Shown: positions 18,973 through 64,000 of the stretch, one piece after another
How the letters are laid out: every line of letters starts with the position of its first letter
Numbering within the stretch: position 1 is the stretch's first letter
Assembly: GCA_016432645.1 (NCBI GenBank)
Contig: CP066698.1
Location: 389,062 to 453,061, forward strand
Reading direction: 5' to 3'
Source: Candidatus Falkowbacteria bacterium
GTDB lineage: Bacteria > Patescibacteriota > Patescibacteriia > Patescibacteriales > UBA12465
Length of the DNA: 64,000 bases
Program-made: the position numbers and the translations under genes
The notes under the pieces: generated by a model
Told to the model about the DNA's origin: nothing
Databases searched by the model: none
The model's input: only the letters and a program-made list of their open reading frames with translations

Positions 18973-19662
18973 TTATTTATTAATAAAAACTGGCAGACCA
19001 ATATCTACCCGATCAAATAAATATTGCGCCGGTCCAACCCCCAGGCGGATACAACCATGAGACACTGCTTTTCCTAAATGATTTTCCCCCTCGCGATAAC
19101 CGCTGGGCCAAACCGGAAGTTCATGGATGCCAATACTGCCGCGGTCCAAACCTAGCCAAAAAGGCATCCAAAGTTTATAGGTTTTAGACCAAGCTTTTTT
19201 AATCCGACTCACTACCGTAAAAGTCCCAGTGGGTGTCGGCATACTGGGCTTGCCGGTGGAAACGGTAAATTCTTTCCAAGCGATTCCCGAAACAAAATAA
19301 ACGAGTTTTTGTTTCTTTAAAGATATTTCTACTTTCTGAGCTAATTTTTTAGTGGAGGTGGAGAGCGGGTCAAAAGCGAAATCAATTTCCGCAAAATCAG
19401 AATAACCATCGGCATCGGTGTCAGCCAACAACGGATCGGTTTTAAACTTAAGTTCCAAATCATCACTTAAACCATCTTGATCGGCATCGCTCGCGGTAAT
19501 TTTCACCGGCTCAATATTAAAAGGCGACCAGCCATTTTTTATTTCTAAGTCATCAGCATAACCATCGCCATCAGAATCAATCATTTCTGCCGCTTTTGAT
19601 ACATTCGGAACCAAAATAAAGCCAGCTAGCAACAAATAAATTATAAATATCCGATATCTCAT
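18973..19662 (-). CDS. L,D-transpeptidase (YkuD) with thrombospondin-type-3-like Ca-binding repeats
   Basis: Signal peptide. Three DxDxDGxxDxxE repeats (DSDGDGYADDLE, DADQDGLSDDLE, DTDADGYSDFAE). Catalytic IHE...SHGCIRL motif. Confidence 0.85.
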   Translation of the reverse strand: MRYRIFIIYLLLAGFILVPNVSKAAEMIDSDGDGYADDLEIKNGWSPFNIEPVKITASDADQDGLSDDLELKFKTDPLLADTDADGYSDFAEIDFAFDPLSTSTKKLAQKVEISLKKQKLVYFVSGIAWKEFTVSTGKPSMPTPTGTFTVVSRIKKAWSKTYKLWMPFWLGLDRGSIGIHELPVWPSGYREGENHLGKAVSHGCIRLGVGPAQYLFDRVDIGLPVFINK

Positions 19663-32257: not shown

Positions 32258-32329
32258 GGTCCCTTCGTCTAACGGTTAGGACGCCAGGTTCTCATCCTGG
32301 TAACAGGGGTTCGATTCCCCTAGGGACTA
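32258..32329 (+). tRNA. tRNA-Glu (anticodon CUC)
   Basis: GGTCCCT/AGGGACT acceptor (G1-U72), GTCT-AACGGTTA-GGAC D arm, CCAGG-TTCTCAT-CCTGG anticodon arm, AGGGG-TTCGATT-CCCCT T arm. 72 nt. Confidence 0.9.
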
Positions 32330-32340
32330 CGTAAATAAAA

Positions 32341-32367
32341 GAACGAGTATTAACTCGTTCTTTTATT
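32341..32367. terminator. bidirectional terminator after tRNA-Glu
   Basis: GAACGAGT-ATTA-ACTCGTTC stem with A-run/T-run flanks. Confidence 0.7.
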
Positions 32368-32370
32368 TAT

Positions 32371-32547
32371 GAAGCCGAAGGCTGGGGAATCGAACAAGTT
32401 GGAAGTGAGCAAGGACTGAGGTCGGAAGACCGAAGGACGAAGCGAACATCTGGCGATATGCCGGGGGCATATCGGACGCCAACTCAGGACAAGTGAACGA
32501 GCCGCATTATGACGGCGAGTGAGCGCGATAATTCCCCTAGGGAATAC
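32371..32547 (+). ncRNA. unclassified GC-rich structured element, copy A (homolog of 63290-63462 on the opposite strand)
   Basis: Flanked by terminator hairpins. Closing helix GGGGAAT(32384-32390)/ATTCCCC(32531-32537). Inner helices GTTGG/CCAAC, GGTC-GGAA-GACC, CGATATGCC-GGG-GGCATATCG and GCCG/CGGC. Conserved junctions are shared with copy B. Transcription direction was not determined. Confidence 0.5.
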
Positions 32548-32552
32548 ATATA

Positions 32553-32586
32553 AAAAAGAATATCTCGTAGAGGTGTTCTTTTTTAT
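32553..32586 (+). terminator. rho-independent terminator after element A
   Basis: AGAATATCTC-GTAG-GAGGTGTTCT stem (two G-U pairs) followed by T6. Confidence 0.55.
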
Positions 32587-32678
32587 TAGTATGGGCAAAC
32601 TGAGGAAGCTAACAATTTTTAGGCATTGTCCAATCACTGAATTTATGGTATTTTAACTGTAGAAAGATAATAAAATTT

Positions 32679-51600: not shown

Positions 51601-54600
51601 ATATCAGAATTAGTAATTGTTGAAGTATTAAGACCAGCAATTCCTCCTCCGTAAGCAACGGCTCCGGCTCCACCAGTACCGCCAGTCGCACCGGCGGCTC
51701 CAAGATGATTAACTCCACCGGCTGCTCCGTTGCCAGCTAACCCAGCCACACCGCCATTTTTCCCCGCTGAAGCGGTAGCGATAACGGTACTAGAAGCATA
51801 GGAATTAAAAATTGTATTAGTATTATTCCCTACCAAACCACCAGCATAAGCAATCGCGCCGGCGCCTCCAGTTCCACCATTGCCACCAGCGGCTGCTGTT
51901 CCTGTATTTACTGTTGCTGTAGTTGCCCCGCCATTACCACCAGCGCCAGCATTACCAGGGGTTCCTCCTAAAGCAGTAACATTTCCGCTAGCATACAAAG
52001 CTGTCGGCGAAGTAATAACGCCGGAACTATATCCAGTTAAACCGCCGGCGGTTGCTACGCCACCAGCGCCTCCATTACCACCGTTTGCTCCCGCGCCACC
52101 GATGGCATTTGTTCCGCCATTACCACCATTACCGCCCAAACCACCATCACCGCCAGTGCCGCCAGTCACAACAACATTTCCAGTAGCATAACTAGTAACG
52201 ATTGGACCAAGCGCATAATAACCGATTAAACCGCCACCAAAAGAAGCGCCTCCAGCACCGCCAGTAGAACCGGCTGCGCCAGCACCGCCAACCGTACTGG
52301 CCGCTCCATTACCGCCATTTGCGCCCGCGCCACCGGCACCGCCAGCGCCAGCATTAGCAACAACGTTTCCGTTAGCGTATGAAGTCACTATTTGTCCATT
52401 TAAATTATAACCTATTAAACCACCAACATAAGAAATTCCACCAGCTGCGCCAGCACTACCAATTACCCCAGCTAAACTAGTCCCACCATCACCGCCATTT
52501 GCACCGGCGCCACCCGCTCCTGAAGTTCCAGAAACATTACCAGATGAATAGTCGCTAGTAATTGTAGTTCCGGCATTATAACCAATTCCGCCACCGGCAT
52601 AAATAATCGCGCCAACAGCAGCTGTTCCGGCCGCGCCAGCTAAACCGCCGGTCCAATTCCCGCCGGTACCACCAGCTCCAGCGGCGCCACCAGCTCCAGC
52701 AGTTCCAGAAACGGTGCCGGTTGTATAATAACTACTATTAATTTGATAAGTATTATTTCCAGCAATCCCTCCAATATACAAAACTCCACCCGCACCGCCG
52801 CTTCCGCCAGCAGAACCAGCCAAACCAGTTAGACCCGCTACGCCAGTTGCACCGGCGCCACCGGCGCCACCGGTACCAGAAACTGAATTCTCTGAATACG
52901 ACAATTGAATTCCTCCAATATTACTACCGACTAAACCGCCTCCATAAGCTGAAACTGAATTAGCTGAACCGCCGGTTCCCGATAAACCGCCAGCTCCGCT
53001 TGCTCCAGAAGATCCCTTAACTCCACCTGAGCCGCCACTAGCTCCCGCTCCTCCAGTTCCGCCAATAACCGTTACCAATCCAGTAGTAGAATAGGAAGAA
53101 ACTATAAAACCAGAATTAAGCCCGGCCAAGCCACCAGCATAAGCACCGCCGCCAGCACCGCCAGCACCGCCAGCACCGCCAGCACCGCCCGTATGAGCCG
53201 TACCAGAAGCAGCACTACCGCCAGTGCCGCCAGCTTTTCCGGCTTGTCCAACTGAACCGGTAGCGGTTACTGCCCCAGTTGCATAGTTGGCGCCTGTTTC
53301 TCCAGTAATGACACCATCTGTATTATTTTGTCCAACTAAACCACCGGCATAAGCAACTGCCCCTGCGCCGCCAGCACCACCAGCACCACCGGTCGCTGCG
53401 GTTCCAGTTGTTGCCACGGCGCTAGCACCAGCAGCTGCGCCGACAGAACCGTTACCAGAAGTACCGCCAAAAGACTGTACAACACCAGTTGCATATGAAA
53501 CATTTTTTATAACCCCTAAATTATTTCCAATTAAACCGCCGGCATAACTTACACCACCAGCCGCGCCAGCACCGCCAGCACCGCCAGCACCGCCAATAGC
53601 CGCCCCACCGCCAGCACCGCCGGTCCCGGCATCTCCAGCCGAACCGCCGGTCCCGCCAGTTGCTGTTACATTACCAGTTGCGGATGAAGCAGAAATAATG
53701 CCGGAGTTAACCCAACCGACCAAACCGCCAACGTAAGCAACGCCGCCGGCGCCAGGAGCACCAACACCGCCGCCGGCGCCGCCAATTCCTGTTCCTAAAT
53801 TTGTTCCACCATTACCACCGCTTCCACTATTACCACCTGTGCCGCCAATACCAACGACGGTCGCCGAACTACCAACAGTATTAATTCCTCCTTGTTGAGA
53901 ATAACCGACTAAACCGCCAACATAGACAGTGCCTCCAATAGCAGCCGCATTAGAAACCGTGGTTCCGCCCGCGCCAGCAACTGTTGCCCCGCTAGTTGTA
54001 TTTCCGCCTAAACCGCCATTACCGGCATTACCGCCATTACCTCCGGTTCCCGTAACATTTCCCGAAATTGTAGTGTTAATAATCGCCCCAATGTTATATC
54101 CAACCAAACCGCCAATATACAAAGTGCTGCCAACTGTCCCCGCAGTACCAGTCCCACCATTTGTTGGTGTGGTCCCGGAAACGCCATCGGTTCCATTAGT
54201 ACCGGCAGTGCCCGGAGTACTAATGGCCGTAATAGAAACGTTGGCCAGGTTAACATTTTGAATTTGGCTGATAGAGTAACCAAAAAGACCAACATAATTT
54301 ATCGAAGTTGAATTAATATACAAGTTACTGATTGTATGATTATCACCATTAAAATCTCCACTGAAACTAGTAGTATTAGTTCCGACCGGGATAAAGCCTG
54401 TGCCAGCATTCCAATTAACTGTCGTCGCAGCATCAATATCACCATTTAGTTTATAGGAATTAGTTAACCCTGTTTTCATGCCTTGCAAGCCATAAACATC
54501 AAAAATCAAATAAGGGTCATCACTAATTCCCATTCCGGTATAACGCTTAAACAACCCGGCTGTCACCGAAAAACTTCCAGTAACCGAAAAAACATTTACC

Positions 54601-55967
54601 GCCGGATTAAGCGCGTTAAAAGTTGCGGCCGAGGTTTGTGAGTAATCGCCAGATTGCCCGCCAGAATTAGTTATCGCTAAACTAGCATTTTGAGTTATTG
54701 TCCCCAGATAGCCATTAATCGTTAGCGAACCAACGCTAACGGCAGTATCAATATTTACAATTGAAGAAGCAATCCCTGATGAAGCGTCAAAAAATACATT
54801 AGTAGTAGCGTCCGGCAAGTTACCAATATCCGGCGTACCGTTAGAAACGGTCGCCCAATGATTGGCCGCGTCAGACCAATCACCGGAACCACCGACCCAA
54901 TAAGCATTGGCGGGTGGATCGATAATTTGGTCGATATCAAGATTATTAATAATTTTTAAATCGAAAACCTCGCTTGGAGTTTGTAAGCCAGTTAATAAAA
55001 CACGATATTTACCATCATGATTAATATCAGAAAATGTGGCCACCAGCTCGCCGGCTAAAGTATAGACTTCGATTGCGCCCGTCTCCCACTCAGTCTGAGG
55101 CTTAGCATATATCGTAATATCGCGCGTATTATCCAATATTTTTTCAAAAGTAATGCGAACATATTGTCCATCAGTTAAACTGACATAATTTTGGTCGCGT
55201 AATTTGACGCCATCATAAATATCGGCAATTACATTTTTTTGAGCATCTAATTGCCAGGCTTGAGAAATATAAATAATCTCAAAAACTTGAGTTGATAGAT
55301 GCGGGACTATCCATTCAACATGATCAATATAGCCATCCCCGTCTTCATCGTCGGTAGTAAAAAGCATCTCCTGCCCATCGTTATTCTTCCATTTTATTTT
55401 AATCCTATCCTCTTGCCCGACTTTAAATATTTCAGGGATAACAGAACGAACCGGGATATCTATCATTGGAGAAATCAACTCTTGCTCCGCCGTTGAGGAA
55501 ACGGTAACCGTTTTTCCGCTACTAGTTTGCTCTTCCACAATGCTAGGCGCCATGTCCAGTTCTGATACTGGGGCGGAGGTAGCGGCCGGCGCTTCAACTT
55601 CCTCAACGACAGGTTCTTCAGCGACAGGTTCTTCAGTTGTTGGTTCTTCGACTATCGGCTCTTCAACGACAGGTTCTTCGACTATCGGCTCTTCAGTTGC
55701 TGGTTCAGTAATAACTTCTTCCGCAACTTCTTCTTCAACGACAGGTTCTTCAGCTATTGGTTCCTCAGTAATCGGTTCAGCAATAACTTCTTCAGCGACT
55801 GGGTTAACGACCTCTTCTGATACAGAAACAGTCTCTTCAACCACCGGTGCAACCTCACTTTCTGGAACTAAAAAAAAGCTCTCATCAGCTGAAGCTTTGG
55901 TACTAAAAATAATAAATAAAAAAGTAGAAAGTAAAATTAAAACTACTTTATTAAATCGTAACGACAT
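36654..55967 (-). CDS. giant secreted surface protein (6437 aa): signal peptide, acidic PE-rich spacer, beta-helix-like N-region, ~50 Gly-rich GLUG-like units, 27 FN3 domains, C-terminal dockerin-like module
   Basis: Single uninterrupted 19314-nt ORF. Signal peptide MSLRFNKVVLILLSTFLFIIFSTKASA. Consistent repeat periodicity in one frame; all other-frame ORFs across it are short Pro/Ala/Leu-rich mirror artefacts. Confidence 0.9.
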   Translation of the reverse strand: MSLRFNKVVLILLSTFLFIIFSTKASADESFFLVPESEVAPVVEETVSVSEEVVNPVAEEVIAEPITEEPIAEEPVVEEEVAEEVITEPATEEPIVEEPVVEEPIVEEPTTEEPVAEEPVVEEVEAPAATSAPVSELDMAPSIVEEQTSSGKTVTVSSTAEQELISPMIDIPVRSVIPEIFKVGQEDRIKIKWKNNDGQEMLFTTDDEDGDGYIDHVEWIVPHLSTQVFEIIYISQAWQLDAQKNVIADIYDGVKLRDQNYVSLTDGQYVRITFEKILDNTRDITIYAKPQTEWETGAIEVYTLAGELVATFSDINHDGKYRVLLTGLQTPSEVFDLKIINNLDIDQIIDPPANAYWVGGSGDWSDAANHWATVSNGTPDIGNLPDATTNVFFDASSGIASSIVNIDTAVSVGSLTINGYLGTITQNASLAITNSGGQSGDYSQTSAATFNALNPAVNVFSVTGSFSVTAGLFKRYTGMGISDDPYLIFDVYGLQGMKTGLTNSYKLNGDIDAATTVNWNAGTGFIPVGTNTTSFSGDFNGDNHTISNLYINSTSINYVGLFGYSISQIQNVNLANVSITAISTPGTAGTNGTDGVSGTTPTNGGTGTAGTVGSTLYIGGLVGYNIGAIINTTISGNVTGTGGNGGNAGNGGLGGNTTSGATVAGAGGTTVSNAAAIGGTVYVGGLVGYSQQGGINTVGSSATVVGIGGTGGNSGSGGNGGTNLGTGIGGAGGGVGAPGAGGVAYVGGLVGWVNSGIISASSATGNVTATGGTGGSAGDAGTGGAGGGAAIGGAGGAGGAGAAGGVSYAGGLIGNNLGVIKNVSYATGVVQSFGGTSGNGSVGAAAGASAVATTGTAATGGAGGAGGAGAVAYAGGLVGQNNTDGVITGETGANYATGAVTATGSVGQAGKAGGTGGSAASGTAHTGGAGGAGGAGGAGGGAYAGGLAGLNSGFIVSSYSTTGLVTVIGGTGGAGASGGSGGVKGSSGASGAGGLSGTGGSANSVSAYGGGLVGSNIGGIQLSYSENSVSGTGGAGGAGATGVAGLTGLAGSAGGSGGAGGVLYIGGIAGNNTYQINSSYYTTGTVSGTAGAGGAAGAGGTGGNWTGGLAGAAGTAAVGAIIYAGGGIGYNAGTTITSDYSSGNVSGTSGAGGAGANGGDGGTSLAGVIGSAGAAGGISYVGGLIGYNLNGQIVTSYANGNVVANAGAGGAGGAGANGGNGAASTVGGAGAAGSTGGAGGASFGGGLIGYYALGPIVTSYATGNVVVTGGTGGDGGLGGNGGNGGTNAIGGAGANGGNGGAGGVATAGGLTGYSSGVITSPTALYASGNVTALGGTPGNAGAGGNGGATTATVNTGTAAAGGNGGTGGAGAIAYAGGLVGNNTNTIFNSYASSTVIATASAGKNGGVAGLAGNGAAGGVNHLGAAGATGGTGGAGAVAYGGGIAGLNTSTITNSDIQFGSVTVTGSNGGDGIIGGAGGAGGTGATGGTGGSGGSGGAGAIGHAGGLVGNNLAGIIQDNSNANIDVVVIGGNSGAGGAGGAAGTRAVGGAGGAGGGAGAIAYGGGLAGLNNGIIDASHATGNVLATGGAGGMVGMGADGGSGSTGATGGASGSNATASVLLRIGGAAYAGGLVGYNNTNGVIRNTSYATGNATAIGGAGANGTAGANGGSSTGAVAGGAGIPGGYGGVGGMAVAGSLVGYNIAIIGAHSYATGNASSTGGIGGVGANAGNGGASGPGIAGVAGVAGGNGGVGGAAYSGGVVGWNGVLGTTLSTPNNTGTITATGGVGGIGGVGGNGGNGGSSAGAIGGTGGTGGSGAAGGLAVGGGIAAYNLGIIQDITYTITDITVNGGAAGNGGVGGNAGASGNISGSTGATAGNGGIGGAGGAIYIGGLVGDNAGVIVNSVVIGSLSASNKAGGSGGIGGNGGNGILGTGGHNGGVGGTGGAGGSSGSVFIGGLAGQGNGNISLSSSIGGTITVTPGSGGGVGGNAGEGGTKGTGGRNGVGGTGGTGGTTGAIFAGGAIGHNSLNDVLFDRIYSTNNVNVTGGTAGSGGNAADGGVGAAAGNGGAGGAGSSAQANSINVGGLIGDIVGTGVSVIDSYATGTVFAVGQLGGNGGNGGIGGNGTTSMTGGAGGVGGAGGAGGLVYGGGLIGFTNTTVYVDSNYATGNVTLTAGYGGVAGNGGNGGTGNAAVGGAGGNGGAGGVGGTVYAGGLIGLVTSGEIIISYSTGAVSGTAGAGGNSGNGGNGGAGGSGAIGGIGGAGIVGAAGGASNTGGLIGQNSGTVQTSYHITGLVFANGGKAGNGGNGGNAGASGNITGSTSAAGGLGANGGVSGATNVGGLIGLNNTALAIVNNSYAKSDVTAVGGNGGNGGIGGNSGDGSAGTNHLGAIGGAGGNGGAGGGAAAAAVQVGGLVGQNALGTITTSYAETGIVTATGGAGGTSALGGLGGVGTGTALSGIAGAGGAGGAGGGVYVGGLVGYTTGIITTNSYSKTSLNITGGAGQDGSAGQDGAVNRGAAGSNGGAGGASGIIYAGGLAGYTTSDVVSSYASYDAVSGKGNIVVNGGTPGNGANAGHGGSGLVGGGVGGAGGAGGVGGAGGGSYVGGLLGAVSATGVVTSSYSDSITISGSEIAGGNGGAGGNGGTGVGTFIGGAGTIGGVGGAGSIRAFGGLVGDNVGVIKGSSYSSVNILVTAGTGGNGGVGGTGGTSGATMATLTAAAGGAGAAGGAGGAIYAGGLVGRMTGTNQARIGESSASGNVSGTGGLGGNGGLGGNGGDGSTGLATHAGSAGALGGAAGAGGAAYVGGLVGYSSFTTGTNNFLNTSATGDVLATGGNSGIAGTSGNGGASRTTVAGGAGGGAVAAVAGGAAYAGGLIGYNAITTGLSDIINSYATGDTSSVGGVGSTGNIGGNGANGATNTIGGAGGAGGIGGAGGEADAGGLLGFGSVTTGGSRYLTSYSTGGTVTATGGVGGIGRSAGNQGTSGSGAAGAAVGAGGNGGAGGAAYAGGLVGQSSGSIFITTSYSNEAVNAIGGVSGNGATGVNGADGGAGAVGGAGGAGGATGIGGASYAGGLIGSNTGIIGGVSYATGNVSSTGGSTGTPGVGGNGGASSNISGSTAATGGAGGAGAAGGASYAGGLAANNSTIGVVLNAYSSGNVNALSGNGANGNTGGAGGDGSLGVGNHIGGTGGAGGAGGAGGAVYIGGLIGNNLNALNTVMTSYSNGTSVTGTSGNGGNGGVGGNGGLPGSVGAGGAGALGGAAGASGALYIGGLIGYNDGTVLFFSYSTSNVIGTAGTGGTGGTGGNGANGFVGITNGANGGVGGGAGAAGAGGAVYGGGFTGYNNTTRNIKDSSASGNVTLNGGTGGTGGMGGNGGVGGDGTTTGIGGTGGAAGARTVGATGSTIYGGGFAGYNLGTIYTNYSLGDVAIFGGTGGVGGAGGIGGAGGNGGASGAGGVGGAEGATAAGGAGGVLYAGGFAGQNNTAGLIQYSWSSGNVTTTGGNGGAAGLAGSAGTGGNGGTLAGGLGGAAVAGGAGGAGGVSYAGGFIGSNLTSGSFNTSYSSGNVTMTGGNGASGAIGGKGGNGGVGGSGAVNGGNGTNGALGGNGGVGGHTYGGGLVGQNTGAIINAYSKGNITAVAGNPGNGGQGGNGGNGGAAGGGNPGVNGNGVNGGAGGAGGSVYIGGLLSSNSATITNAYSTGVPSGTKTAGATGGAGGVAGVGGTGGTNGGTGATGSAAVQYVGGVVNTTGGTYVSTYWDTNTSGIAAGDGVGNGTDPAGMTGKTTSQMEQQATFTGWDFSSLVWKITEDETYPIFNYQVAPDAPTNVVAVRGNGEATITFTPPVNNGGSEITIYTVTSSGGQTATGGASPITITGLINGTTYTFTVTATNSTGTSTASGTSNSVTPASVPNSPTDVTAVRGNGEATITFTAPVNNGGSAVISYTVTSSGGHTATSGSSPIIITGLNNGTAYTFTVTANNAVGNSAPSAASNSITPATTPDAPTNVVAARGNGEATITFTPPVNNGGSAVISYTVTSSGGQTASGGSSPITITGLTNGVTYTFTVTATNAIGTSTPSATSNSITPATVPDSPTDVTALRGNGEATITFTPPVNNGGSAVISYTVTSSGGQTASGGSSPITITGLTNGVTYTFTVTATNAIGTSTPSATSNSITPATVPDAPTNIVAVRNDGEATITFTPPVNNGGSAVISYTVTSSGGQTASGASSPITITGLTNGTTYTFTVTATNAIGTSTSSITSNEITPASVPDAPTNIVATRGNGEATITFTPPVNNGGSTITNYTVTSSGGQTASGGSSPITITGLTNGTTYTFTVTAANAIGTSLSSGTSNSVIPATTPDAPTSITAAPRNGEATITFTPPVNNGGSSITSYTVTSSGGQTASGGSSPITITGLTNGTTYTFTVTATNAIGTSTISTISNSIIPASVPDAPTNIVATRGNGEAVITFTPPVNNGGSNIISYTVTSSVGGQTVVSGSSPVTFIGLTNGLSYTFTVTANNAVGSSAPSGTSNSVTPATVPDAPTNVIATRGNGEATITFTPPVNNGGSAITSYTVTSSGGQTASGASSPITITGLTNGTSYTFTVTATNAIGTSTLSGTSNSVTPATVPDVPTNVVATRGNGEATITFTPPVNNGGSNIISYTVTSNGGHTATGGSSPISISGLTNGVTYTFTVTATNAIGTSTPSATSNSITPATVPDAPTNVVAVRNDGEATITFDAPVNNGGSAITSYTATSNVGGFSATSAGSPITITGLTNGINYTFVVTATNAIGTSTPSGTSNSITPSSVPDAPTSILATRGNGEATITFTAPVNNGGSAIINYTVTSSGGQTASGGSSPITITGLTNGTSYTFTVTATNVIGTSASSATSNSVTPATAPDAPTNVLATRGNSEATITFDVPVNNGGSAVISYTVTSSGGQTASGGSSPITITGLTNGTSYTFTVTATNAIGASASSATSNSITPATVPDAPTNITATRGNGEATISFTAPVSSGGSIITSYTVTSNDGHTATGGSSPITITGLTNGTTYTFTVTATNAIGTSASSATSNSVTPATVPDAPTNVVVTRGNGEATITFSPPVNNGGSAITSYTVTSNVGGFSVSGASSPITVTGLTNGTIYTFTVTATNSIGTSVQSSVSSTVIPATVPDAPTNVIAVRNDGEATITFDAPINNGGSVITIYTATSNVGGFSATSAGSPITITGLTNGTTYTFTVTATNAIGTSVQSSVSNSVTPATTPDAPTNVVATRGNGEATITFTPPVNNGGSAIINYTVTSSGGQTASGGSSPITITGLTNGTSYTFTVTATNAIGTSASSATSNSVTPATTPDAPTNVVATRGNGEATITFTPPVNNGGSAIINYTVTSSGGQTASGGSSPITITGLANGTTYTFTVTANNAVGSSVPSGTSNSVTPATVPDAPTNVVVTRGNGEATISFTASASNGGSSIISYTVTSNVGGFSATSADSPITITGLTNGTRYTFTVIATNAIGNSLSSGTSAEITPATTPDAPTNVVATRGNGEATITFTPPVNNGGSPITSYTVTSNVGGFSATGGSSPITITGLTNGTTYTFTVTATNAIGTSTPSGTSNSIVPANVPDAPTNVVAVQGNGEATITFTSPVNNGGSSITSYTVASNVGGFTATGGSSPITITGLINGTTYTFTVTATNAIGTSASSATSNSVTPATAPDAPTNVIVTRGNGEATITFSPPVNNGGSPITSYTVTSNIGVFSATGGSSPITITGLTNGTTYTFTVTATNAIGTSTPSTVSSPIVAANVPDAPTNVVVTRGNGEATITFDAPINNGGSAITSYTVTSNIGGFSATGGSSPITITGLTNGTTYTFTVTATNAIGTSTPSGTSNSATPANVPDAPTNVTAVRGNGEATITFTPPVNNGGSVITSYTVTSNVGGFTATGGSSPITITGLTNGTTYTFTVTATNEIGTSSLSGTSNSITPANVPDAPTNVTAIRGNGEATITFDAPVNNGGSAITSYTVTSSAGHTATGGSSPITITGLTNGVTYTFTVTATNAIGVGPSSIGGANSATPATVPGAPTNLAATIGDGSASLSWSAPADNGGSVITNYTVSSNVGGFVATSSSPFLTINGLTNGTTYTFTVTATNAVGTGSPSGTSNSITPASIPNAPTNLAVIIQNSSVDLSWSAPVFDGGSSITDYVVEYKLTSGGVWSIFNDGISTTPATTVTSLANDNSYDFRVSAKNIVGRGAASTAVSGTPGSPAQVLIQSFSDLTSPSIATAIRITNDSSTAYEYQYNWCVTNSDTNLCGGGDDIFSSTAAILINPHANFDTTLNSIISAAGNYWFHLNVQFGSDSSRAMQSFTVVSETVVVPPSGGGGGGGGGAVPVLPPVVETPETTCIGADFNHDGKVNSVDFSIMLAFWKTTAPFKNVCVDINNDKQVNSVDFSILLYQWGKAPIKLKQ
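36657..36848 (-). other. dockerin-like module (two Ca-binding loop/helix repeats) at the C-terminus of the giant protein
   Basis: DFNHDGKVNSVDFSIMLAFW and DINNDKQVNSVDFSILLYQW form a duplicated DxNxDgxVNsxDfsxLl pattern. It is preceded by a G9 run (36896-36922) and a PPVVETPE linker. Confidence 0.7.
37262..44530 (-). repeat. in-frame tandem array of 27 FN3-domain repeats (267-276 bp units)
   Basis: Each unit reads ~ (V/T)PDAPTNVVATRGNGEATITFTPPVNNGGSxITSYTVTS..GxxAxG.SSPITITGLTNGTTYTFTVTATNAIGTSxxS.TSNSxTPA. Count taken from the translation. Neighbouring units share long identical DNA runs (e.g. 39821-39950 = 40088-40217). Confidence 0.9.
44760..54300 (-). repeat. in-frame array of ~50 GLUG-like units with long Gly-rich spacers (~64 aa period)
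   Basis: Recurring core (Y/F)xGG(L/I/F)xG(Y/N)N..xI..SY(A/S)(T/S)GxVx followed by 25-40 aa of GGxGGxGG-type sequence. The array ends with YWDTNTSG...TFTGWDF...W...YPIF. Confidence 0.8.
55560..55853 (-). repeat. acidic Pro/Glu/Val-rich low-complexity spacer (EEPVVEEPIVEEP-type)
   Basis: About 100 aa of imperfect 5-6-aa repeats immediately after the signal peptide. Confidence 0.8.
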
Positions 55968-60637: not shown

Positions 60638-60710
60638 GCGCCTATAGCTCAGTTGGTAGAGCAGCTCCCTTTTAAGGAGACGGTCGTAGGTTCGAATCCT
60701 ACTGGGCGCA
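60638..60710 (+). tRNA. tRNA-Lys (anticodon UUU)
   Basis: GCGCCTA/TGGGCGC acceptor, GCTC-AGTTGGTA-GAGC D arm, CTTTTAA anticodon loop, GTAGG-TTCGAAT-CCTAC T arm. 73 nt. Confidence 0.92.
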
Positions 60711-60718
60711 CAAAAAAA

Positions 60719-60752
60719 GAAAAACCGTTCTAATAGGACGGTTTTTCTTTTT
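60719..60752. terminator. bidirectional terminator
   Basis: 10-bp stem GAAAAACCGT/ACGGTTTTTC with a 9-nt loop and A/T runs on both sides. Confidence 0.7.
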
Positions 60753-60778
60753 AAGAATTAAATTATATTTTTATATCT

Positions 60779-61534
60779 TTAACGCAAAGTCCAGCCGCCG
60801 TCAACGACAATCGTCTGGCCAGTAATATAACTCGCGCCTTCAGAAGCCAAAAAGGCTACCGCGTTAGCAATATCTTCCGGCTGACCGTAGCGAGAGAGTG
60901 GAATCATCGCTACCGTCTGTTTTCGAAGCTCTTCAGTGGCCGTCCGCGGTTGATCAGGCTGGCTGGCTCCCGGAGTATCGATTGCACCTGGGGCAACATT
61001 ATTAACCGTAATTTTCCTGGGCGCAACCTCTAAGGCTAGAGCTCTAGCAAAAGCGTTAAGCGCTCCTTTGGAAGCGCAATAATGGGTTAAGCCGGCGAAA
61101 CCGACAACGGAGGCAATGGAAGAAATATTAATTATCCGTCCGCCCTCAGGCATAACTTTCAACGCTTCCTGACAAGTGAAAAAAATACTTTTTAAATTAA
61201 CATCAATTACCTTGTCCCAATCACTTTCAGTCATCTTATCAAAAGCAATAAACGGAAAGATACCGGCATTGTTCACCAAAATATCCAAAGAACCGAACTC
61301 TGATTTAACGGCGGCAATCATCGCTTCAACCTCCGCTTTATTACTAACATCACACTTAAGAGCCAGGGCTTGGCTTCCCAGCTGTTTAATCTCATCCGCA
61401 ACCTGTTGGCAAGCTGATTGGTCAAGATCGGCTACAACTATTTTAGCTCCGGCCTTAGCCAGCACTAAGGCAATCCCGCGACCGATTCCCTGCTTAGCAC
61501 CGGTAACAACTGCGACTTTATTTTGTAAATCCAT
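60779..61534 (-). CDS. short-chain dehydrogenase/reductase (FabG-like)
   Basis: VTGAKQGIGRGIA, NNAG, S...YCASK catalytic pattern. 251 aa. Confidence 0.88.
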   Translation of the reverse strand: MDLQNKVAVVTGAKQGIGRGIALVLAKAGAKIVVADLDQSACQQVADEIKQLGSQALALKCDVSNKAEVEAMIAAVKSEFGSLDILVNNAGIFPFIAFDKMTESDWDKVIDVNLKSIFFTCQEALKVMPEGGRIINISSIASVVGFAGLTHYCASKGALNAFARALALEVAPRKITVNNVAPGAIDTPGASQPDQPRTATEELRKQTVAMIPLSRYGQPEDIANAVAFLASEGASYITGQTIVVDGGWTLR

Positions 61535-61618
61535 ATGATTTTAAAGTTAAATTATGTTTATAATAACTACTTTTTTATATTAGTATTTTAGCAAAATAAT
61601 GGGAAAAAGTATAAAAAA

Positions 61619-61642
61619 GAAGCTGGCTTGCCAGCCGGCTTC
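61619..61642 (-). terminator. rho-independent terminator following short element a
   Basis: Minus strand GAAGCCGGCT-GGCA-AGCCAGCTTC followed by T6. Confidence 0.65.
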
Positions 61643-61652
61643 ATTCTCATTG

Positions 61653-61679
61653 GCGGAGAGATGGGCGTAGTTAGAATGG
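61653..61679 (-). repeat. short element a of the GCGGAGAG/CTCTCCGC family
   Basis: Minus strand reads CCATTCTAACTACGCCCATCTCTCCGC(CA); sits between the gene's stop-proximal hairpin and a terminator. Confidence 0.5.
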
Positions 61680-61708
61680 TTTTAGATAAATAAAAAAATC
61701 TAAATCTA

Positions 61709-62296
61709 CTACTCATTTCCTACAAATTTTTTGAAGTTTTCCATATCCTGTTCAGATCCTAATACGTTGATTTGTTCCGGCTCATAAACACTATACTCAT
61801 CATCATTTGTCCCTTCAAAAGCATATACTCCATCATATCCATATTTATTTGCATAAACATAAATATTGGCTGGTAGATAAAAATTTTTACTTTTTCCTTC
61901 GGTGTACTCAGGGTGTTCTTTATTTACATAGTTAATAAATTCGTCATTATATGGTTCGGCTAAATTATTTATATTTAAAACAGCTTGCATTACATATTGA
62001 CCGTACCTTCCCGTATTAATGGGGCTAAAATAAAATCTATATCCATTTATTTCCTTTGTTTTAGATTTATCAAAAACATCAAATTTTTCAACAGTTCTAT
62101 GATAGACGATATCCTTTATCTTGCTTTCAGGAAAAACCGTATCTAAATATTTTGAATATTGCTCCTTTGTTCCAATATCAGCTAACTCTGGGATTTGCTC
62201 AAAAGCAAAATCAACTCCTTCTTTAATTTGAGGCTTTTCAATTTTATTTTCTTTTAAATCAGTATTCTGCGGAAAACTAAAGGGGAATTTTTCCAT
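61709..62296 (-). CDS. hypothetical protein; weak resemblance to polyvalent-protein-type ADP-ribosyltransferase-like domains
   Basis: 195-aa ORF. VYHRT...FDVFD, YFSP and the C-terminal EYSVYEPEQI pattern recall the H-Y-E style ART-PolyVal family. By eye only. Confidence 0.55.
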   Translation of the reverse strand: MEKFPFSFPQNTDLKENKIEKPQIKEGVDFAFEQIPELADIGTKEQYSKYLDTVFPESKIKDIVYHRTVEKFDVFDKSKTKEINGYRFYFSPINTGRYGQYVMQAVLNINNLAEPYNDEFINYVNKEHPEYTEGKSKNFYLPANIYVYANKYGYDGVYAFEGTNDDEYSVYEPEQINVLGSEQDMENFKKFVGNE

Positions 62297-62323
62297 ATTT
62301 TAACTAAAATCCAGCCATCATCA

Positions 62324-62668
62324 TTATAACATTATAATTGCAACGGAAGCGGCAACAAAAAAATAAATTTGATAAATCAAATATGGAACCAAATAATATA
62401 AGATTATGGCTTCAACCAATGATATTATTATTTTATTTATTGCCCGATTAAGGATCGTTTTTGTCTTGTTTTCTTTAAATAATCTAAATGTAAAATAACA
62501 AGACAATATAAATACTACAAAATGCAAATACACGTAACCATTAAAGTGGAGTCCCTTGAATAATGTGTAGTTCAGTCTTAATAATACAATAAATACCGCC
62601 GTACTAATAAATAGGTTGAGGATATCAAATTTGTGGTTCTTAACGGCGCGAATAATTTTATTTTCCAT
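62324..62668 (-). CDS. small membrane protein, unknown function
   Basis: 114 aa, 3-4 hydrophobic segments, 27 nt upstream of the next gene. Confidence 0.55.
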   Translation of the reverse strand: MENKIIRAVKNHKFDILNLFISTAVFIVLLRLNYTLFKGLHFNGYVYLHFVVFILSCYFTFRLFKENKTKTILNRAINKIIISLVEAIILYYLVPYLIYQIYFFVAASVAIIML

Positions 62669-62769
62669 AAATCAATTTGCTTAATGCTATCAATGGCTAT
62701 TTATATTATATCATGTTAGCTAAAAGATGATAGGTTTACTTGTTAGGGAGCTCTACAAACAAAGAAAAA

Positions 62770-62790
62770 AGAAGGAATTTTATTCCTTCT
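62770..62790 (-). terminator. terminator following short element b
   Basis: AGAAGGAAT-NNN-ATTCCTTCT with A/T runs on both sides. Confidence 0.6.
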
Positions 62791-62800
62791 TTTTTTCTTG

Positions 62801-62829
62801 GCGGAGAGGGTGGGACGATGTTGGAACTG
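62801..62829 (-). repeat. short element b of the family
   Basis: Minus strand reads CAGTTCCAACATCGTCCCACCCTCTCCGC(CA); bracketed by hairpins at 62847-62870 and 62770-62790. Confidence 0.5.
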
Positions 62830-62846
62830 TTTTGACAAATAAAAAA

Positions 62847-62870
62847 GGAAGTCTTATATTTTAGACTTCC
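62847..62870 (-). terminator. terminator directly after the 82-aa gene
   Basis: Minus strand GGAAGTCT-N8-AGACTTCC followed by T6. Confidence 0.6.
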
Positions 62871-62889
62871 CTGATAAGGACGATAAATG

Positions 62890-63138
62890 CTATCGAAAAT
62901 TTCGTACGGCCACGATACGCTGAAACCATTTTGTTACTAATACAGCAACAATATGTCCAATTAATGAAAATATAATGGCCAAATACCAATAAGCTGGGAG
63001 TATAACCCACGTTAGAGCAAGGGATCCACCAATAGCGCCACCAGGCAAACGATTTGCTTTCTTTTTCCCAAGAATTGCGGCGGTTCCAGCATAAACTGCC
63101 ATACCAATCAAAAACGAAAAAATAGATATTTTTAACAT
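62890..63138 (-). CDS. small membrane protein, unknown function
   Basis: 82 aa, 3 hydrophobic segments, followed by a terminator. Confidence 0.55.
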   Translation of the reverse strand: MLKISIFSFLIGMAVYAGTAAILGKKKANRLPGGAIGGSLALTWVILPAYWYLAIIFSLIGHIVAVLVTKWFQRIVAVRNFR

Positions 63139-63255
63139 GATTGCGATTTTATAAAGTTACTACTAATTTGATTAATTACTAAACTTACCTAATCTTTAGA
63201 TAATCTCAGTAATTAACCAAATCTAACCCAATTTTTTAAAGTTCTACATAACAAA

Positions 63256-63280
63256 AAAGTATATCATATTAATATACTTT
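63256..63280 (-). terminator. hairpin following element B
   Basis: AAAGTATAT-N7-ATATACTTT, 9-bp AT stem with T-rich flanks. Confidence 0.45.
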
Positions 63281-63289
63281 TGTCAATCT

Positions 63290-63462
63290 GCGGAGAGAGA
63301 GGGATTTATCGCGCTCGCTTTTCTTCCGAAAAGCTCACTTGTCCAGAGGCAGCGCTAAAGCATCCCCCGGATGCTTTAGCGACGCTCGTCTACACACTCG
63401 CCGCTCAGAAAAGTGGCTCGTGTTTGCCTCGCTTCTGCCTAGTTCGAATCCCTCCCATTTTC
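63290..63462 (-). ncRNA. unclassified GC-rich structured element, copy B (strand assigned by homology to copy A)
   Basis: Closing helix GAGGGATT/AATCCCTC (63447-63454 with 63299-63306). Inner helices GGCAG/CTGCC, a 13-bp hairpin CGCTAAAGCATCC-GGG-GGATGCTTTAGCG and CTTTTC-GGAA-GAAAAG. Junction sequences (ATTCGAAC, AAGYGAG.CAA, GGACAAGTGA, GAGCGCGATAA) are shared with copy A. Confidence 0.5.
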
Positions 63463-63473
63463 CAAATACAAAA

Positions 63474-63500
63474 ATAAAACAACCAATTTGGTTGTTTTAT
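63474..63500 (-). terminator. terminator hairpin between short element c and element B
   Basis: AAAACAACCA/TGGTTGTTTT stem with a 3-nt loop and T-runs on both strands. Confidence 0.6.
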
Positions 63501-63507
63501 TTTGTGT

Positions 63508-63536
63508 GCGGGGAGAGTGGGATGCAGTTGGAACAG
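63508..63536 (-). repeat. short element c of the family
   Basis: Minus strand reads CTGTTCCAACTGCATCCCACTCTCCCCGC; 20 nt downstream of the eutH stop. Confidence 0.45.
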
Positions 63537-63555
63537 TAATTTCTAATATTCTTAA

Positions 63556-64000
63556 TTATTCTAACAATTTATTATCTTTCTTTAAATAAATTCTATTATA
63601 TACAAACATTGCTACCATTATGGCCGTCAGTCCGCCAATTAATTTACCTCCAATTACTGGTAATATCATATTGGTATTAACGCTAGCTGTAAAACCTAAG
63701 TGATCACCTAGAACAAAAGCTGCTGAAACCGCAAAAGCTACATTAATCACTTTGCCGCGATTATCCATTTCTTTAAACATGCTAAACATCGGAATATTAT
63801 TAGCTAAAGATGTAATGAGCCCAGCAGCAGATTTATCATTTATATTTAATTTTTTTCCACCAGCTACTAAATATTTTTTAAATATGGTTGTAATGGCGTA
63901 AACCATTGGATAAGCCCCAACTAAAATAATAGTAATTGAGCCAATAATTTTTAGACTTTCTGATATTGGCGCCATACCAGGAATAATTACAAAACTAGTC
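63556..64000 (-). CDS. eutH: ethanolamine permease EutH, C-terminal part (gene continues beyond the right edge)
   Basis: GSITIILVGAYPMV...LANNIPMFSMFKEMDNRGKVINVAFAVSAAFVLGDHLGFTA...GKLIGGLTAI closely parallels the C-terminus of E. coli EutH as I recall it. The frame stays open upstream of the tracked Met to position 64000. Confidence 0.85.
   Translation of the reverse strand, partial: TSFVIIPGMAPISESLKIIGSITIILVGAYPMVYAITTIFKKYLVAGGKKLNINDKSAAGLITSLANNIPMFSMFKEMDNRGKVINVAFAVSAAFVLGDHLGFTASVNTNMILPVIGGKLIGGLTAIMVAMFVYNRIYLKKDNKLLE

Follow-up and report, generated by a model that had tools for sequence, protein, structure and literature searches.

Integrase-mediated insertion gives rise to tandem genomic islands at the 3′ ends of tRNA and tmRNA genes, such as the Dehalococcoides ssrA islands (PMC3146451). 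The structured element analyzed here stands at tRNA genes in units that share with these islands a direct repeat of the tRNA 3′ end that keeps the tRNA intact, an identity block starting from the T-loop, and a tandem arrangement of repeat-bounded units. Unlike the islands, the element units examined carried no integrase and were tiny (0.23–1.5 kb), the commonest held only the 165-nt structured RNA, and at least six tRNA species were used. A T-loop sublocation of tRNA integration sites was reportedly described by Williams in 2002.

The ω/reRNAs of TnpB and IscB (HEARO and IS605-orfB in Rfam) are similar to the element in layout only: a scaffold at the end of the insert runs into ca. 16 nt of target flank, so that the site of insertion determines the 3′ segment of the RNA. 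However, the element had no adjacent tnpB or iscB and no match to HEARO or IS605-orfB, its flank-derived segment is partly paired to the 5′ arm of the scaffold, and it is accompanied by a long direct repeat, which IS200/IS605 elements do not make. The bridge (seek) RNAs of IS110/IS1111 elements are likewise ncRNAs of ca. 170 nt at the element end with target-complementary segments. In contrast, the window (the whole 64-kb stretch of DNA analyzed in this study) yielded no DEDD recombinase, and none recurred among the neighbors of the element, which has no paired internal guide loops and a repeat of 16 nt rather than a 2-nt core.

Integron cassettes are also short, mostly single-gene units without a recombinase whose ends are marked by a bulged structured element, attC. 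On the other hand, neither RYYYAAC/GTTRRRY cores (no GTTRRRY at the 3′ end of the element) nor IntI/attI were found here, the arrays begin at a tRNA gene, many of their cassettes end in a 12-nt motif, GTTCCAA-N5, and the fold is multi-branched with RNA-type motifs. tRNA-like RNAs (tmRNA, YrlA, mascRNA, viral tRNA-like structures, and synthetic RNase P external guide sequences) share with the element a T-stem-like helix, an acceptor 3′ strand, and a discriminator, all of which the element carries at its 3′ end. Unlike them, it lacks an acceptor 5′ strand, a T-loop, and a D-arm analogue, a 150-nt domain taking the place of the T-loop. No sequence complementary to the acceptor part of its tRNA-derived 3′ tail was found upstream of the closing helix (P1) as an acceptor-stem partner, and the element was called by neither ARAGORN nor RF00005.

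The window contains two copies of the element with one multi-helix fold common to both, copy A at 32384–32531 (+) and copy B at 63306–63456 (−). A covariance model built from 27 homologues scored them at 169.9 and 146.5 bits, respectively, and gave no further matches in the window, so that only two copies occur in 64 kb. The reverse complement of ca. 63288–63455 aligned with 32382–32549 at 75% column identity, wider flanks included, whereas the bodies of the two copies were 49% identical. The span initially annotated for copy B, 63256–63536, also takes in a hairpin on either side and the end of the gene cassette that lies upstream. The features of copy B were as follows.

63306–63456 (−), body of copy B, from the covariance-model match, fold, alignment, and covariation
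63442–63456 (−), 5′ arm, GGGAGGGAT followed by TCGAAC
63426–63441 with 63345–63352 (−), helix P2
63394–63424 (−), helix P2a
63353–63381 (−), helix P2b
63333–63344 (−), junction GGACAAGTGAGC
63319–63332 (−), P3 hairpin with a GGAA loop
63306–63318 (−), end of the body, GCGAGCGCGATAA
63284–63305 (−), tail ATCCCTCTCTCTCCGCAGATTG, direct repeat of tRNA-Ser, 22 nt identical to L127 1–34
63468–63505 (−), perfect long hairpin with A/T tracts directly upstream of copy B, terminator-like in a terminator scan
63251–63283 (−), hairpin after the tail

The corresponding features of copy A were as follows.

32258–32330 (+), tRNA-Glu(CTC), from ARAGORN and Rfam tRNA
32315–32330 (+), left repeat, tRNA-Glu nucleotides 59–73+1, TTCCCCTAGGGACTAC
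32332–32369 (+), terminator-like hairpin between tRNA-Glu and copy A
32374–32382 (+), small hairpin GCCGAAGGC
32384–32531 (+), body of copy A, from GGGGAATCGAAC to GAGCGCGATAA, from the covariance-model match and fold
32532–32547 (+), tail TTCCCCTAGGGAATAC, one mismatch to the tRNA-Glu end
32550–32586 (+), hairpin after the tail

The initial annotation had described conserved junctions and four helix pairs that differ between the copies, and all of these were present as noted. The junction strings ATTCGAAC/AATCGAAC, GGACAAGTGA[G/A]C, and GAGCGCGATAA are kept in both copies. The closing helix is complementary in each copy with different letters (GAGGGATT/AATCCCTC versus GGGGAAT/ATTCCCC), as are the second helix (GGCAG/CTGCC versus GTTGG/CCAAC), the GGG-loop hairpin, and the hairpin with a GGAA or N8 loop. 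The two copies had folding energies of −55.9 kcal/mol (z = −3.5) and −72.1 kcal/mol (z = −3.8), in each case beating their shuffles.

To extend the comparison beyond two copies, as had been proposed in the initial annotation, more homologues were collected. Pattern scans gave 29 loci in genomes and 97 in metagenomes, and the covariance model matched more than 130 elements; the named genome MAGs carrying the element belong to Patescibacteria. Among 88 distinct homologues, 30 of the 37 base pairs showed two-sided changes, and 93.8% of the cells in paired columns could pair, compared with 70.5% in shuffles and 32–47% when the partners were slid. G-U combinations outnumbered A-C combinations (170 versus 36), indicating that the folded strand is the tRNA-sense strand, and 104 G·A cells lay within paired columns. 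The core is a three-way junction of P1, P2 (which bears P2a and P2b), and P3, with the conserved junctions GAAC, GGACAA, and GAGCGCGAUAA. One U·G pair is almost invariant, tandem sheared G·A pairs are present in the family, and C-GGAA-G is its commonest hairpin loop. Several divergent subfamilies stand side by side within single genomes, where the bodies are 49–66% identical and the fold is retained. Mutual-information analysis returned the known pairs and subfamily couplings only, with no additional pseudoknot or internal binding site for the tail.

The homologues, the covariation, the G-U asymmetry, and the tetraloops bear out the earlier proposal that conserved junctions with covarying stems point to a fold under selection and not to a repeat in decay. 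That proposal had also listed a riboswitch among the possible functional RNAs. This option is not sustained: terminator-like hairpins lie on both sides, the downstream genes are unrelated, and the element showed neither the 5′-UTR position before a recurrent gene class nor the expression platform of a riboswitch. Open reading frames on the opposite strand (63280–63477, 63339–63539, and 32350–32637) were discounted as coding, given the covariation of the helices and the presence of indels whose length is not divisible by three.

In a gathering-score scan of the window with Rfam 15, three tRNAs passed and no family was assigned to the element; E-value scans of both loci returned only weak miRNA/sRNA matches, on the flanking hairpins. 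Viral contigs gave no matches to the strict pattern. The loose pattern matched at least 120 stretches of viral contigs, and none of the 80 loci listed was accepted by the covariance model. Literature searches, including searches with the motif strings, found no description of the family. The element family is Patescibacteria-wide and uncatalogued. As judged from comparative sequence analysis, copies A and B are best read as genes, or transcribed modules, encoding a structured RNA of ca. 165 nt specific to Patescibacteria. No −10 box was conserved at a fixed distance between the upstream hairpin and the element, and its expression would therefore require read-through from the tRNA or a promoter of unrecognized type.

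Across the loci, the order was constant: tRNA, hairpin, element, exact repeat of tRNA nucleotides 59–73(+1), and hairpin. Each element closes off, on the right, a small unit lodged at the 3′ end of a tRNA gene; it always has the orientation of the tRNA and directly adjoins the repeat. The start of the repeat is fixed, directly after GGTTCGA in the tRNA and directly after GCGATAA in the element, and its end is N73+1 in most loci. The type of the tail was that of the adjacent tRNA in all 34 of 34 loci (at least 80% identical in 28), with Glu, Ser, Gln, Gly, Trp, and Cys tRNAs as partners. Tail variants follow the tRNA variants across genomes (L002, L006, L027, and L031), and the tail is identical to the neighboring tRNA through N73+1, whereas the adjacent hairpins have diverged. 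After the tail, the context again copies the tRNA gene (N73, C, hairpin). In a few high-scoring copies (L007, L052, and L105), the acceptor part of the tail has decayed, suggesting that a full tail is not always needed.

Within the repeat, the T-stem 3′ strand is the partner of the 5′ arm, GGGA[A/T]; P1 uses positions 59–64/65, and one of its two strands thus comes from the tRNA. In hybrid arrays, the 5′ arm fits the right-hand repeat and not the left one (copy B and the second and third elements of L050); on this sequence evidence P1 is considered a real intramolecular helix. It also covaries with unusual T-stems (GAGAAT/ATTCTC in L006, GTAGGAA/TTCCTAC in L017, and GAGAGGA/TCCTCTC in L114). 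The 5′ arm is nevertheless mostly a generic anti-T-arm, forming 5.6 bp with its own tail versus 3.8 bp with foreign tails, and would alone be unable to choose among tRNAs. In most copies, the first 12 nt of the element can pair with tRNA positions 53–64, as a group I internal guide would; however, the T-loop part is invariant in both partners and the pairing is broken in the TGAGAAC and GCGAAC subfamilies. A tracked guide in the T-loop complement was considered and rejected: GGTTCGA is common to all partner tRNAs, which offer no match to the GCGAAC, TGAGAAC, and TTTGAAC variants of the element. The TCGAAC stretch, altered in the TGAGAAC and GCGAAC subfamilies, tracks nothing.

The initial annotation had compared the tail of copy B with a Ser-type tRNA end, as that of copy A with tRNA-Glu, and had predicted a tRNA with the T-arm GAGGG-TTCGAAT-CCCTC. 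This tRNA was found just beyond the end of the window. Locus L127, which is identical to the window, runs 795 bases past the window end and reaches TCGAGGGTTCGAATCCCTCTCTCTCCGCAGATTG; the tRNA-Ser sequence lies 766–795 nt past the end. The tail of copy B matches it without a mismatch over 22 nt, namely tRNA-Ser nucleotides 59–73 plus 6 downstream bases. Within it, AAATCCCTCTCTCTCCGC corresponds to the T-stem 3′ strand, the acceptor 3′ strand, and the discriminator of tRNA-Ser, and the first 7–10 bases of the tail form the 3′ strand of P1. Copy B and TCGAGGGTTCGAATCCCTCTCTCTCCGCAGATTG are separated by a 1.4-kb cassette whose cargo is EutH; in L127 the EutH gene is complete (367 aa), with the tRNA-Ser 3′ end ahead of it. 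The neighboring units of this array were as follows.

63556–64000 (−), 3′ part of the EutH permease gene (Pfam EutH, E = 4.8e-53)
63507–63537 (−), right end of the EutH cassette, ACTGTTCCAACTGCA, abutting a diverged tRNA-Ser-type repeat, TCCCACTCTCCCCGCA
62762–63138 (−), next array unit
62890–63138 (−), gene for an 82-aa membrane protein in the next unit, followed by a terminator
62800–62830 (−), junction ACAGTTCCAACATCG/TCCCACCCTCTCCGCC in the next unit
62762–62799 (−), hairpin of the next unit

The type of junction at 63507–63537 recurs in L035, L028, and L050, and the hairpin family upstream of copy B also occurs after tRNA-Ser genes in L007, L022, and L034. The hairpin at 63251–63283 overlaps a strong promoter-like site, TTGACA-17-TATACT, which is aimed into the next cassette.

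Beyond what had been annotated, the tRNA-derived tail is the direct repeat that bounds units accreting together with gene cassettes. RNA units alternate with integrase-less single-gene cassettes, and every unit closes at the tRNA-end repeat. The units measure 0.23–1.5 kb, the smallest and commonest being the hairpin and the element alone. The order in L050 is tRNA-Gln, element, cassette, element, cassette, element, element; in L023 and L025, two element copies surround 2–2.5 kb of cargo. L034 and L035 are an empty/filled pair: tRNA-Ser is intact in L034, and L035 has the end of a cassette there. As in genomic islands, the inserted DNA is flanked by a direct repeat of the tRNA 3′ end and accretes in tandem. 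Gene cassettes without the element also stand in the arrays, many of them ending in GTTCCAA-N5, indicating that the element is not needed in cis by every unit. GTTCCAA was not supported as a genome-wide uptake-type motif, most of its 21 occurrences lying in the repeats of a giant gene.

Element bodies are shuffled among tRNA types, and the tail always fits the local tRNA. The nearest relatives of copies A (Glu) and B (Ser) are Trp-linked copies (82% and 81% identity, respectively), and one Gln-linked and one Ser-linked copy are 89% identical.

To search for a partner protein, 580 ORFs within 3.5 kb of 106 pattern matches were clustered, and 148 representatives of the neighbor clusters and 39 ORFs of the window were scanned against Pfam. 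The 39 window ORFs included no recombinase, integrase, IntI-like, or DEDD protein. No recombinase, reverse transcriptase, TnpB, or IS110 protein recurred among the neighbor clusters; the 25 commonest Pfam families of the 148 clusters were housekeeping proteins or variable cargo and included no recombinase, and no protein of these clusters consistently adjoined the element. The units of the window, L023, L025, and L050 carried no integrase gene.

We tentatively favor, at less than an even chance, a role for the element as an RNA scaffold whose target-derived 3′ segment serves a trans-encoded insertion system at tRNA ends. The transcript would consist of the scaffold and a 3′ segment templated by the insertion site, following the logic of transposon-end guide RNAs, and would be the partner of a trans-encoded recombinase or nuclease. 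This enzyme would insert or retain units at the T-loop/T-stem boundary of tRNA genes, the tRNA-gene end being recognized through the tRNA-derived tail and the 5′ arm, a generic anti-T-arm. Each insertion would rebuild the tRNA 3′ end, so that the tRNA stays functional and further units can accrete. The covariation, strand asymmetry, C-GGAA-G tetraloops, raised GC content, fixed architecture, P1 helix, accretion, movement between tRNAs, and lack of a recombinase in the examined units count for this reading. No partner protein and no conserved −10 box were found in the surveys above, and these results count against it, as do the generic 5′ arm, the untracked TCGAAC, the element-free cassettes, and the decayed tails. 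That the repeat stops sharply at the tRNA 3′ end is accounted for just as well by selection for restoring the tRNA, which would act on every tRNA-targeting island.

It is possible, with a somewhat lower probability, that the element is instead a payload: a stable trans-acting RNA with a cellular role, carried as cargo by tRNA-targeting units, with the tail and P1 as by-products. Such a role would agree with the deep conservation, the lack of a nearby partner protein, and the decay of the acceptor part of the tail in some copies, and the divergent subfamilies within one genome (49–66% body identity) are as expected of paralogous functional RNAs. The depth of conservation is seen in the setting: an ART-PolyVal-like gene and tRNA-Ser flank the element both in the window and in one Falkowbacteria genome whose protein is only 48% identical. 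However, cargo is not expected to lie always at the extreme right end of its unit in one orientation, nor to have an invariant junction with the repeat and to use the repeat as a strand of its closing helix, and the smallest and commonest unit holds nothing else than the hairpin and the element.

An unlikely reading is mimicry of a tRNA 3′ end, P1 imitating the T-stem and the tail the acceptor 3′ strand and discriminator. RNase Z, exonucleases, and the CCA-adding enzyme would then define or stabilize the RNA 3′ end, comparable to the punctuation of long transcripts by tRNAs; in a variant, the RNA could be a decoy or partner for tRNA-3′-end factors, resembling an RNase P external guide sequence. 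The tail kept identical to the tRNA through N73+1 beside diverged hairpins, the tail variants that follow tRNA variants, and the post-tail context copied from the tRNA gene are consistent with this. RNase Z, RNase P, and CCA-adding enzymes, however, need an acceptor/T minihelix, and the element has no 5′ acceptor strand in cis and hence no acceptor stem, is scored by neither ARAGORN nor the Rfam tRNA model, and has decayed tails on some intact bodies.

Equally doubtful is a more active role, in which the element is itself the guide- or bridge-like scaffold, or the catalyst, of an insertion system of unknown type acting at the T-loop/T-stem boundary without a recombinase in cis. The anti-T-arm 5′ arm and the tRNA-identical tail could then invade both strands of the tRNA-gene end, and the RNA-only units would be autonomous, with the GTTCCAA-ended gene cassettes as passengers.

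Slightly less probable again is a folded single-stranded DNA site, like integron attC or CTX phage attP, at which a host recombinase splices cassettes in; P1 with a TCG/CGA helix and a TAA bulge would rebuild the duplex of the tRNA-gene T-loop/T-stem. P1 plus TCG:CGA does equal the tRNA-gene duplex 56 to 64 with a 3-nt extrahelical bulge, the arrays consist of small integrase-less cassettes each ending in a structured element or short motif plus the repeat, no convincing promoter lies upstream of the element, and a single-strand DNA site would likewise give strand asymmetry. Nevertheless, the near-invariant U·G, frequent G-U, tandem sheared G·A, and C-GGAA-G tetraloops are typical of RNA, and the fold is a multi-branch junction with conserved purine-rich joiners, not an imperfect hairpin. 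Moreover, the element lacks R″/R′ core sites, no IntI-like gene was found in the window or among the 25 commonest neighbor families, and gene cassettes in the arrays do without the element.

A mobile intron-like ribozyme, self- or reverse-splicing into the tRNA T-loop, appears very improbable. Its 5′ arm GGGGAA/TCGAAC would be an internal guide over the insertion point GTTCGA/TTCCCC; the 12-nt 5′ segment complementary to tRNA 53–64 across the junction does recall the group I P10/P1 arrangement, and a catalytic core could be built from the conserved nucleotides of the junctions. Yet the upstream tRNA is complete, leaving nothing to splice, the left junction is not one of tRNA and element, the element ends in GATAA and so lacks a terminal G, no U·G stands at the would-be splice site, Rfam gave no intron match, and several subfamilies have lost the T-loop complement.

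Finally, a non-functional repeat (decaying MITE) or a cis-regulatory leader or riboswitch of the downstream gene, although the element is multi-copy and intergenic with imperfect terminal inverted repeats, is hardly credible and effectively refuted by the strong compensatory covariation across phylum-level divergence, the unrelated downstream genes with a terminator between them and the element, and same-genome bodies only 49–66% identical with the fold intact (53–66% for same-MAG copies, with a repeat of at least 16 nt that is tRNA-derived, unlike a MITE).

Patescibacteria (CPR) account for much of bacterial diversity, and to our knowledge their ncRNAs and the acquisition of genes by their tiny genomes are almost unstudied. 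Even as a mimic of tRNA ends or as payload, the element would be a new RNA class, and its tie to copies of tRNA 3′ ends bounding integrase-less cassette arrays has, as far as we know, not been described previously. Should the RNA participate in insertion, this would represent a new RNA-dependent targeting of DNA to tRNA genes and possibly a programmable tool; if it is the insertion guide or catalyst, ultra-small bacteria would have an integron-like means of gene acquisition. As a mimic or payload, it would still be a practical marker for hot spots of CPR accessory genes.

The small hairpin GCCGAAGGC before copy A keeps its pairing with varying letters in other Glu-linked copies, as seen by eye and uncounted. 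The GC content of the element is 0.55–0.56, compared with 0.42 for the window.

The initial annotation described two copies of a structured element in the window, with conserved junctions and covarying stems. Copy B, on the minus strand, could be aligned with 32384-32547 of the plus strand (copy A), and each junction string and helix pair quoted there was present in the alignment. Copy B consists of the following parts.

63456-63306, minus strand: body, reading GGGAGGGATTCGAAC...GCGAGCGCGATAA
63305-63284, minus strand: tail ATCCCTCTCTCTCCGCAGATTG, directly after the body

Both copies adopted a common multi-branch shape, and the fold was better than that of shuffled sequences (z = -3.5 and -3.8). 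However, the opposite strands also folded well, so the strand could not be decided by folding energy alone. Rfam contained no family for copy A or copy B; the only passing matches in the window were three tRNAs, and matches from permissive scans were confined to flanking hairpins, with none on either copy. A covariance model built from a 27-sequence alignment of homologues detected exactly two copies in the window (169.9 and 146.5 bits).

Species-representative genomes contained 29 loci with the pattern GGACAAGTGARC-N(6-36)-GAGCGCGATAA, and metagenomes contained 97 loci with a slightly looser pattern; the model matched 36 times in the former loci and 95 times in the latter. All specifically labelled MAGs among the genome loci were Patescibacteria (Falkowbacteria, Paceibacterota, and Saccharimonadales). 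The remaining MAGs were labelled 'uncultured Gammaproteobacteria' and, in one case, 'Bacillota', and their element and tRNA context were identical in kind. Viral contigs had no locus with the strict pattern; a looser pattern gave at least 120 chance-level matches there, and the model accepted none among the 80 loci listed.

RNAalifold predicted 37 pairs from the 27-sequence alignment, 28 of them with compensatory changes. In 88 distinct sequences, standard pairs occupied 93.8% of cells; this share fell to 70.5% after column shuffling and to 32-47% after sliding the partners by 1-3 columns. Two-sided changes occurred at 30 of the 37 pairs. The fold comprises the following parts.

P1: closing helix
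TCG:CGA extension: 3 bp, across a TAA bulge
P2a, inside P2: GA-rich hairpin, in most cases with a GGAA cap, containing tandem sheared G.A pairs
P2b, inside P2: hairpin with a GGG(G) loop
P3: helix flanked by GUGA/GAGC

The conserved joiners were GAAC, GGACAA, and GAGCGCGAUAA. In paired columns, G-U/U-G occurred 170 times versus 36 times for A-C/C-A, and G.A/A.G occurred 104 times; one U.G pair was near-invariant, and C-GGAA-G was the commonest hairpin loop (67/360). The excess of G-U over A-C, the U.G pair, and the GGAA loops indicate that the folded strand is the tRNA-sense strand and that the motifs are RNA-typical. The fold is selected and strand-specific, and is most likely that of an RNA. 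Divergent relatives had GGACAACGA...GAGGCGGAAA followed by the repeat, with TGAGAAC in place of the 5' TCGAAC, and minimal relatives of 100-116 nt were reduced to P1, a single hairpin, P3, and GCGATAA. The minimal forms could define the essential core. Both kinds occur on contigs with homologous loci.

L021, 7082-7246: divergent subfamily
L003, 3717-3876: divergent subfamily
L050, 6316-6476: divergent subfamily
L021, 2958-3057: short form
L025, 5518-5633: short form

At all loci, a co-oriented tRNA gene or tRNA 3' fragment was located upstream of the element, which was preceded by a long A/T-tract hairpin. Directly 3' of GCGATAA was a tRNA copy that starts at position 59, in the T-loop, and ends one or two bases past the discriminator, typically 16 nt long and occasionally 26-38 nt, reaching into the hairpin. 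The partner tRNAs were Glu-CTC/TTC, Ser-GCT/TGA/GGA, Gln-CTG/TTG, Gly-GCC/TCC, Trp-CCA, and Cys-GCA. Among 72 distinct elements whose upstream sequence was long enough, 34 had a tRNA within 140 nt. In 28 of the 34, the tail was at least 80% identical to the 3' 16 nt of this tRNA; in six, a tail of the same tRNA type had decayed or been interrupted; in none was the tail of a foreign type. The element is invariably coupled to the tRNA-derived repeat.

Within the tail, the T-stem 3' strand is the pairing partner of the P1 5' arm, which followed even unusual T-stems (GAGAAT/ATTCTC in L006, GTAGGAA/TTCCTAC in L017, GGGAG/CTCCC in L027, and GAGAGGA/TCCTCTC in L114). Mean pairing was 5.6 bp with the own tail versus 3.8 bp with foreign tails; since (A/T)TCCC is common to most partner tRNAs, the arm is largely a generic anti-T-arm. 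In arrays with unequal left and right repeats (copy B and the copies el2 and el3 of L050), the arm fits the right-hand repeat, indicating that P1 is a helix of the element and its own tail, not a mere part of the preceding junction. TCGAAC beside the arm is the complement of the T-loop; it was rejected as a tracked T-loop guide because it covaried with nothing and was altered in some subfamilies.

Glu-linked copies had a further small hairpin directly upstream of P1 (window 32374-32382; also L001, L008, L016, L020, L027, and others), whose stems, judged by eye, vary with pairing kept (GCC-GAA-GGC, GGC-GTTA-GCC, GCGCC-ATA-GGCGC, CCGCC-GTA-GGCGG); Ser-, Gln-, and Trp-linked copies lacked it. In L004 (ca. 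1093-1135), L065, and L123, a GC-rich palindrome (TCCCTGCCTGCCGGCAGGCAGG...) interrupts the tail between the T-stem and acceptor parts of the tRNA-Ser repeat. Downstream of tRNA-Trp in L017 (5538-6100), one full element is followed by partial, rearranged P2a and P3 repeats, with a tRNA-type repeat at the far end only.

Units accrete at tRNA 3' ends. L050 carries, in order, tRNA-Gln, an element, a cassette for a PEP-utilising enzyme, an element, a cassette for inositol monophosphatase, and two further elements; each of the two cassettes has GTTCCAA-N5 at its end, directly next to a tRNA-Gln-type repeat. Two copies each were present in L023, L049, L078, and L025, flanking 2-2.5 kb of accessory genes. 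Rightwards from the repeat, L034 and L035 do not differ; to its left lies tRNA-Ser in L034 and the cassette end ...CCGTTCCAAGTGCG / TCCCACCC in L035. The two form an empty/filled pair that places the insertion at the T-loop/T-stem boundary. Element bodies did not cluster by tRNA type: the nearest relatives of copies A and B were both Trp-linked (82% and 81%), and one Gln-linked and one Ser-linked copy shared 89% identity. Copies within one genome were divergent, with identities of 49% between copies A and B and 53-66% among copies in one MAG. Because bodies are not grouped by tRNA type, it is the site that dictates the tail, which is not passed on together with the body.

Copy B had been predicted to relate to a Ser-type tRNA end. 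An exact-protein look-up retrieved contig L127, which matches window 60683-64000 at 100% identity and continues for 795 nt beyond it. L127 starts with TCGAGGGTTCGAATCCCTCTCTCTCCGCAGATTG, a tRNA-Ser 3' end whose T-arm is exactly the expected one, and 22 nt of the copy B tail are identical to it. Between this tRNA-Ser and copy B lies a 1.4-kb unit (hairpin, promoter-like site, complete EutH permease gene, and junction), and beyond the tail and its hairpin lies another (82-aa membrane-protein gene, terminator, junction, and hairpin).

63537-63507, minus strand: EutH cassette junction, ACTGTTCCAACTGCA / TCCCACTCTCCCCGCA
62830-62800, minus strand: next-unit junction, ACAGTTCCAACATCG / TCCCACCCTCTCCGCC

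The minus-strand array is therefore tRNA-Ser, gene cassette, RNA unit, gene cassette. Inside the hairpin after the copy B tail (63258-63286, minus strand) is a promoter-like site close to consensus (TTGACA-17-TATACT, with TG), and Gln- and Ser-linked homologues have related ...GATTGACAAAA... sequences after the tail; the next cassette may be driven from this region. The integrase-less single-gene cassettes with the GTTCCAA-N5 end directly abut a tRNA 3' end copy, often diverged (window 62800-62830 and 63507-63537, minus strand; L050 4800-4830 and 6010-6040; L035 ca. 800-830). Several start, past the preceding hairpin, with GAACTTTGGAAC or GTTCCAAAGTT, and they look like a second unit class at the same tRNA insertion point. 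A protein downstream of the array (61709-62296, minus strand) weakly matches ART-PolyVal (ADP-ribosyltransferase); its counterpart at 48% identity in L021 (6198-6773), from a Falkowbacteria genome, shows that the locus is old.

No unit examined carried an integrase. No recombinase was found in the 64-kb window, recurrently among neighbours, or among the 25 commonest families of the 148 neighbour-protein clusters; the neighbouring genes were variable cargo or had housekeeping roles (TsaD, Fmt, YchF, UvrA). Since position, orientation, and junction are invariant and the repeat forms half of the closing helix, the element and repeat presumably work together. We tentatively favour the reading that the element would be an RNA that partners an activity encoded in trans, one that inserts or retains units at the ends of tRNA genes, because a scaffold running into site-derived sequence is the layout of transposon-end guide RNAs and because of the element-repeat coupling. 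Against this partner role stand the lack of a partner protein among recurrent neighbours and the 25 commonest families of the 148 clusters, the lack of a recognisable upstream promoter, the weak specificity of the 5' arm, gene cassettes without the element, and tail decay in a few intact copies. The sharp repeat end would be equally compatible with selection for tRNA restoration, acting on any unit that targets a tRNA.

A payload RNA, carried as cargo, is possible but less probable. A tRNA-end mimic, for processing or as a decoy, is unlikely. Somewhat more doubtful is a folded-DNA recombination site, given the RNA-typical motifs. An intron-like ribozyme is very improbable, and an inert repeat or riboswitch is scarcely credible. 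Among known systems, tandem islands driven by integrases at tRNA and tmRNA genes (e.g., PMC3146451) are alike in the accretion of units, integrons in cassette logic, omega RNAs in the scaffold-plus-flank layout, IS110 bridge RNAs in size and end location, and tRNA-like RNAs as well as synthetic external guide sequences in the T-stem plus acceptor 3' strand; for each family compared, the element lacked a defining feature when tested. No description of this family was found in the literature searched. The finding is real and its interpretation as a functional RNA fold is supported: the element represents a new, widespread RNA family whose tie to tRNA 3' ends and integrase-less cassette arrays is unprecedented.

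Elsewhere in the window, 19662-21242 (minus strand) is one ORF with glycosyltransferase family 4 (residues 80-239) and epoxyqueuosine reductase QueH (349-521) domains; it is an uncommon gene fusion or else a misreading of two genes as one. Positions 36654-55967 (minus strand) form a single, internally repetitive ORF of 6437 aa, with GTTCCAAT-containing segments every ca. 270-540 nt at 38131-42700; its product looks like a giant surface-type protein.
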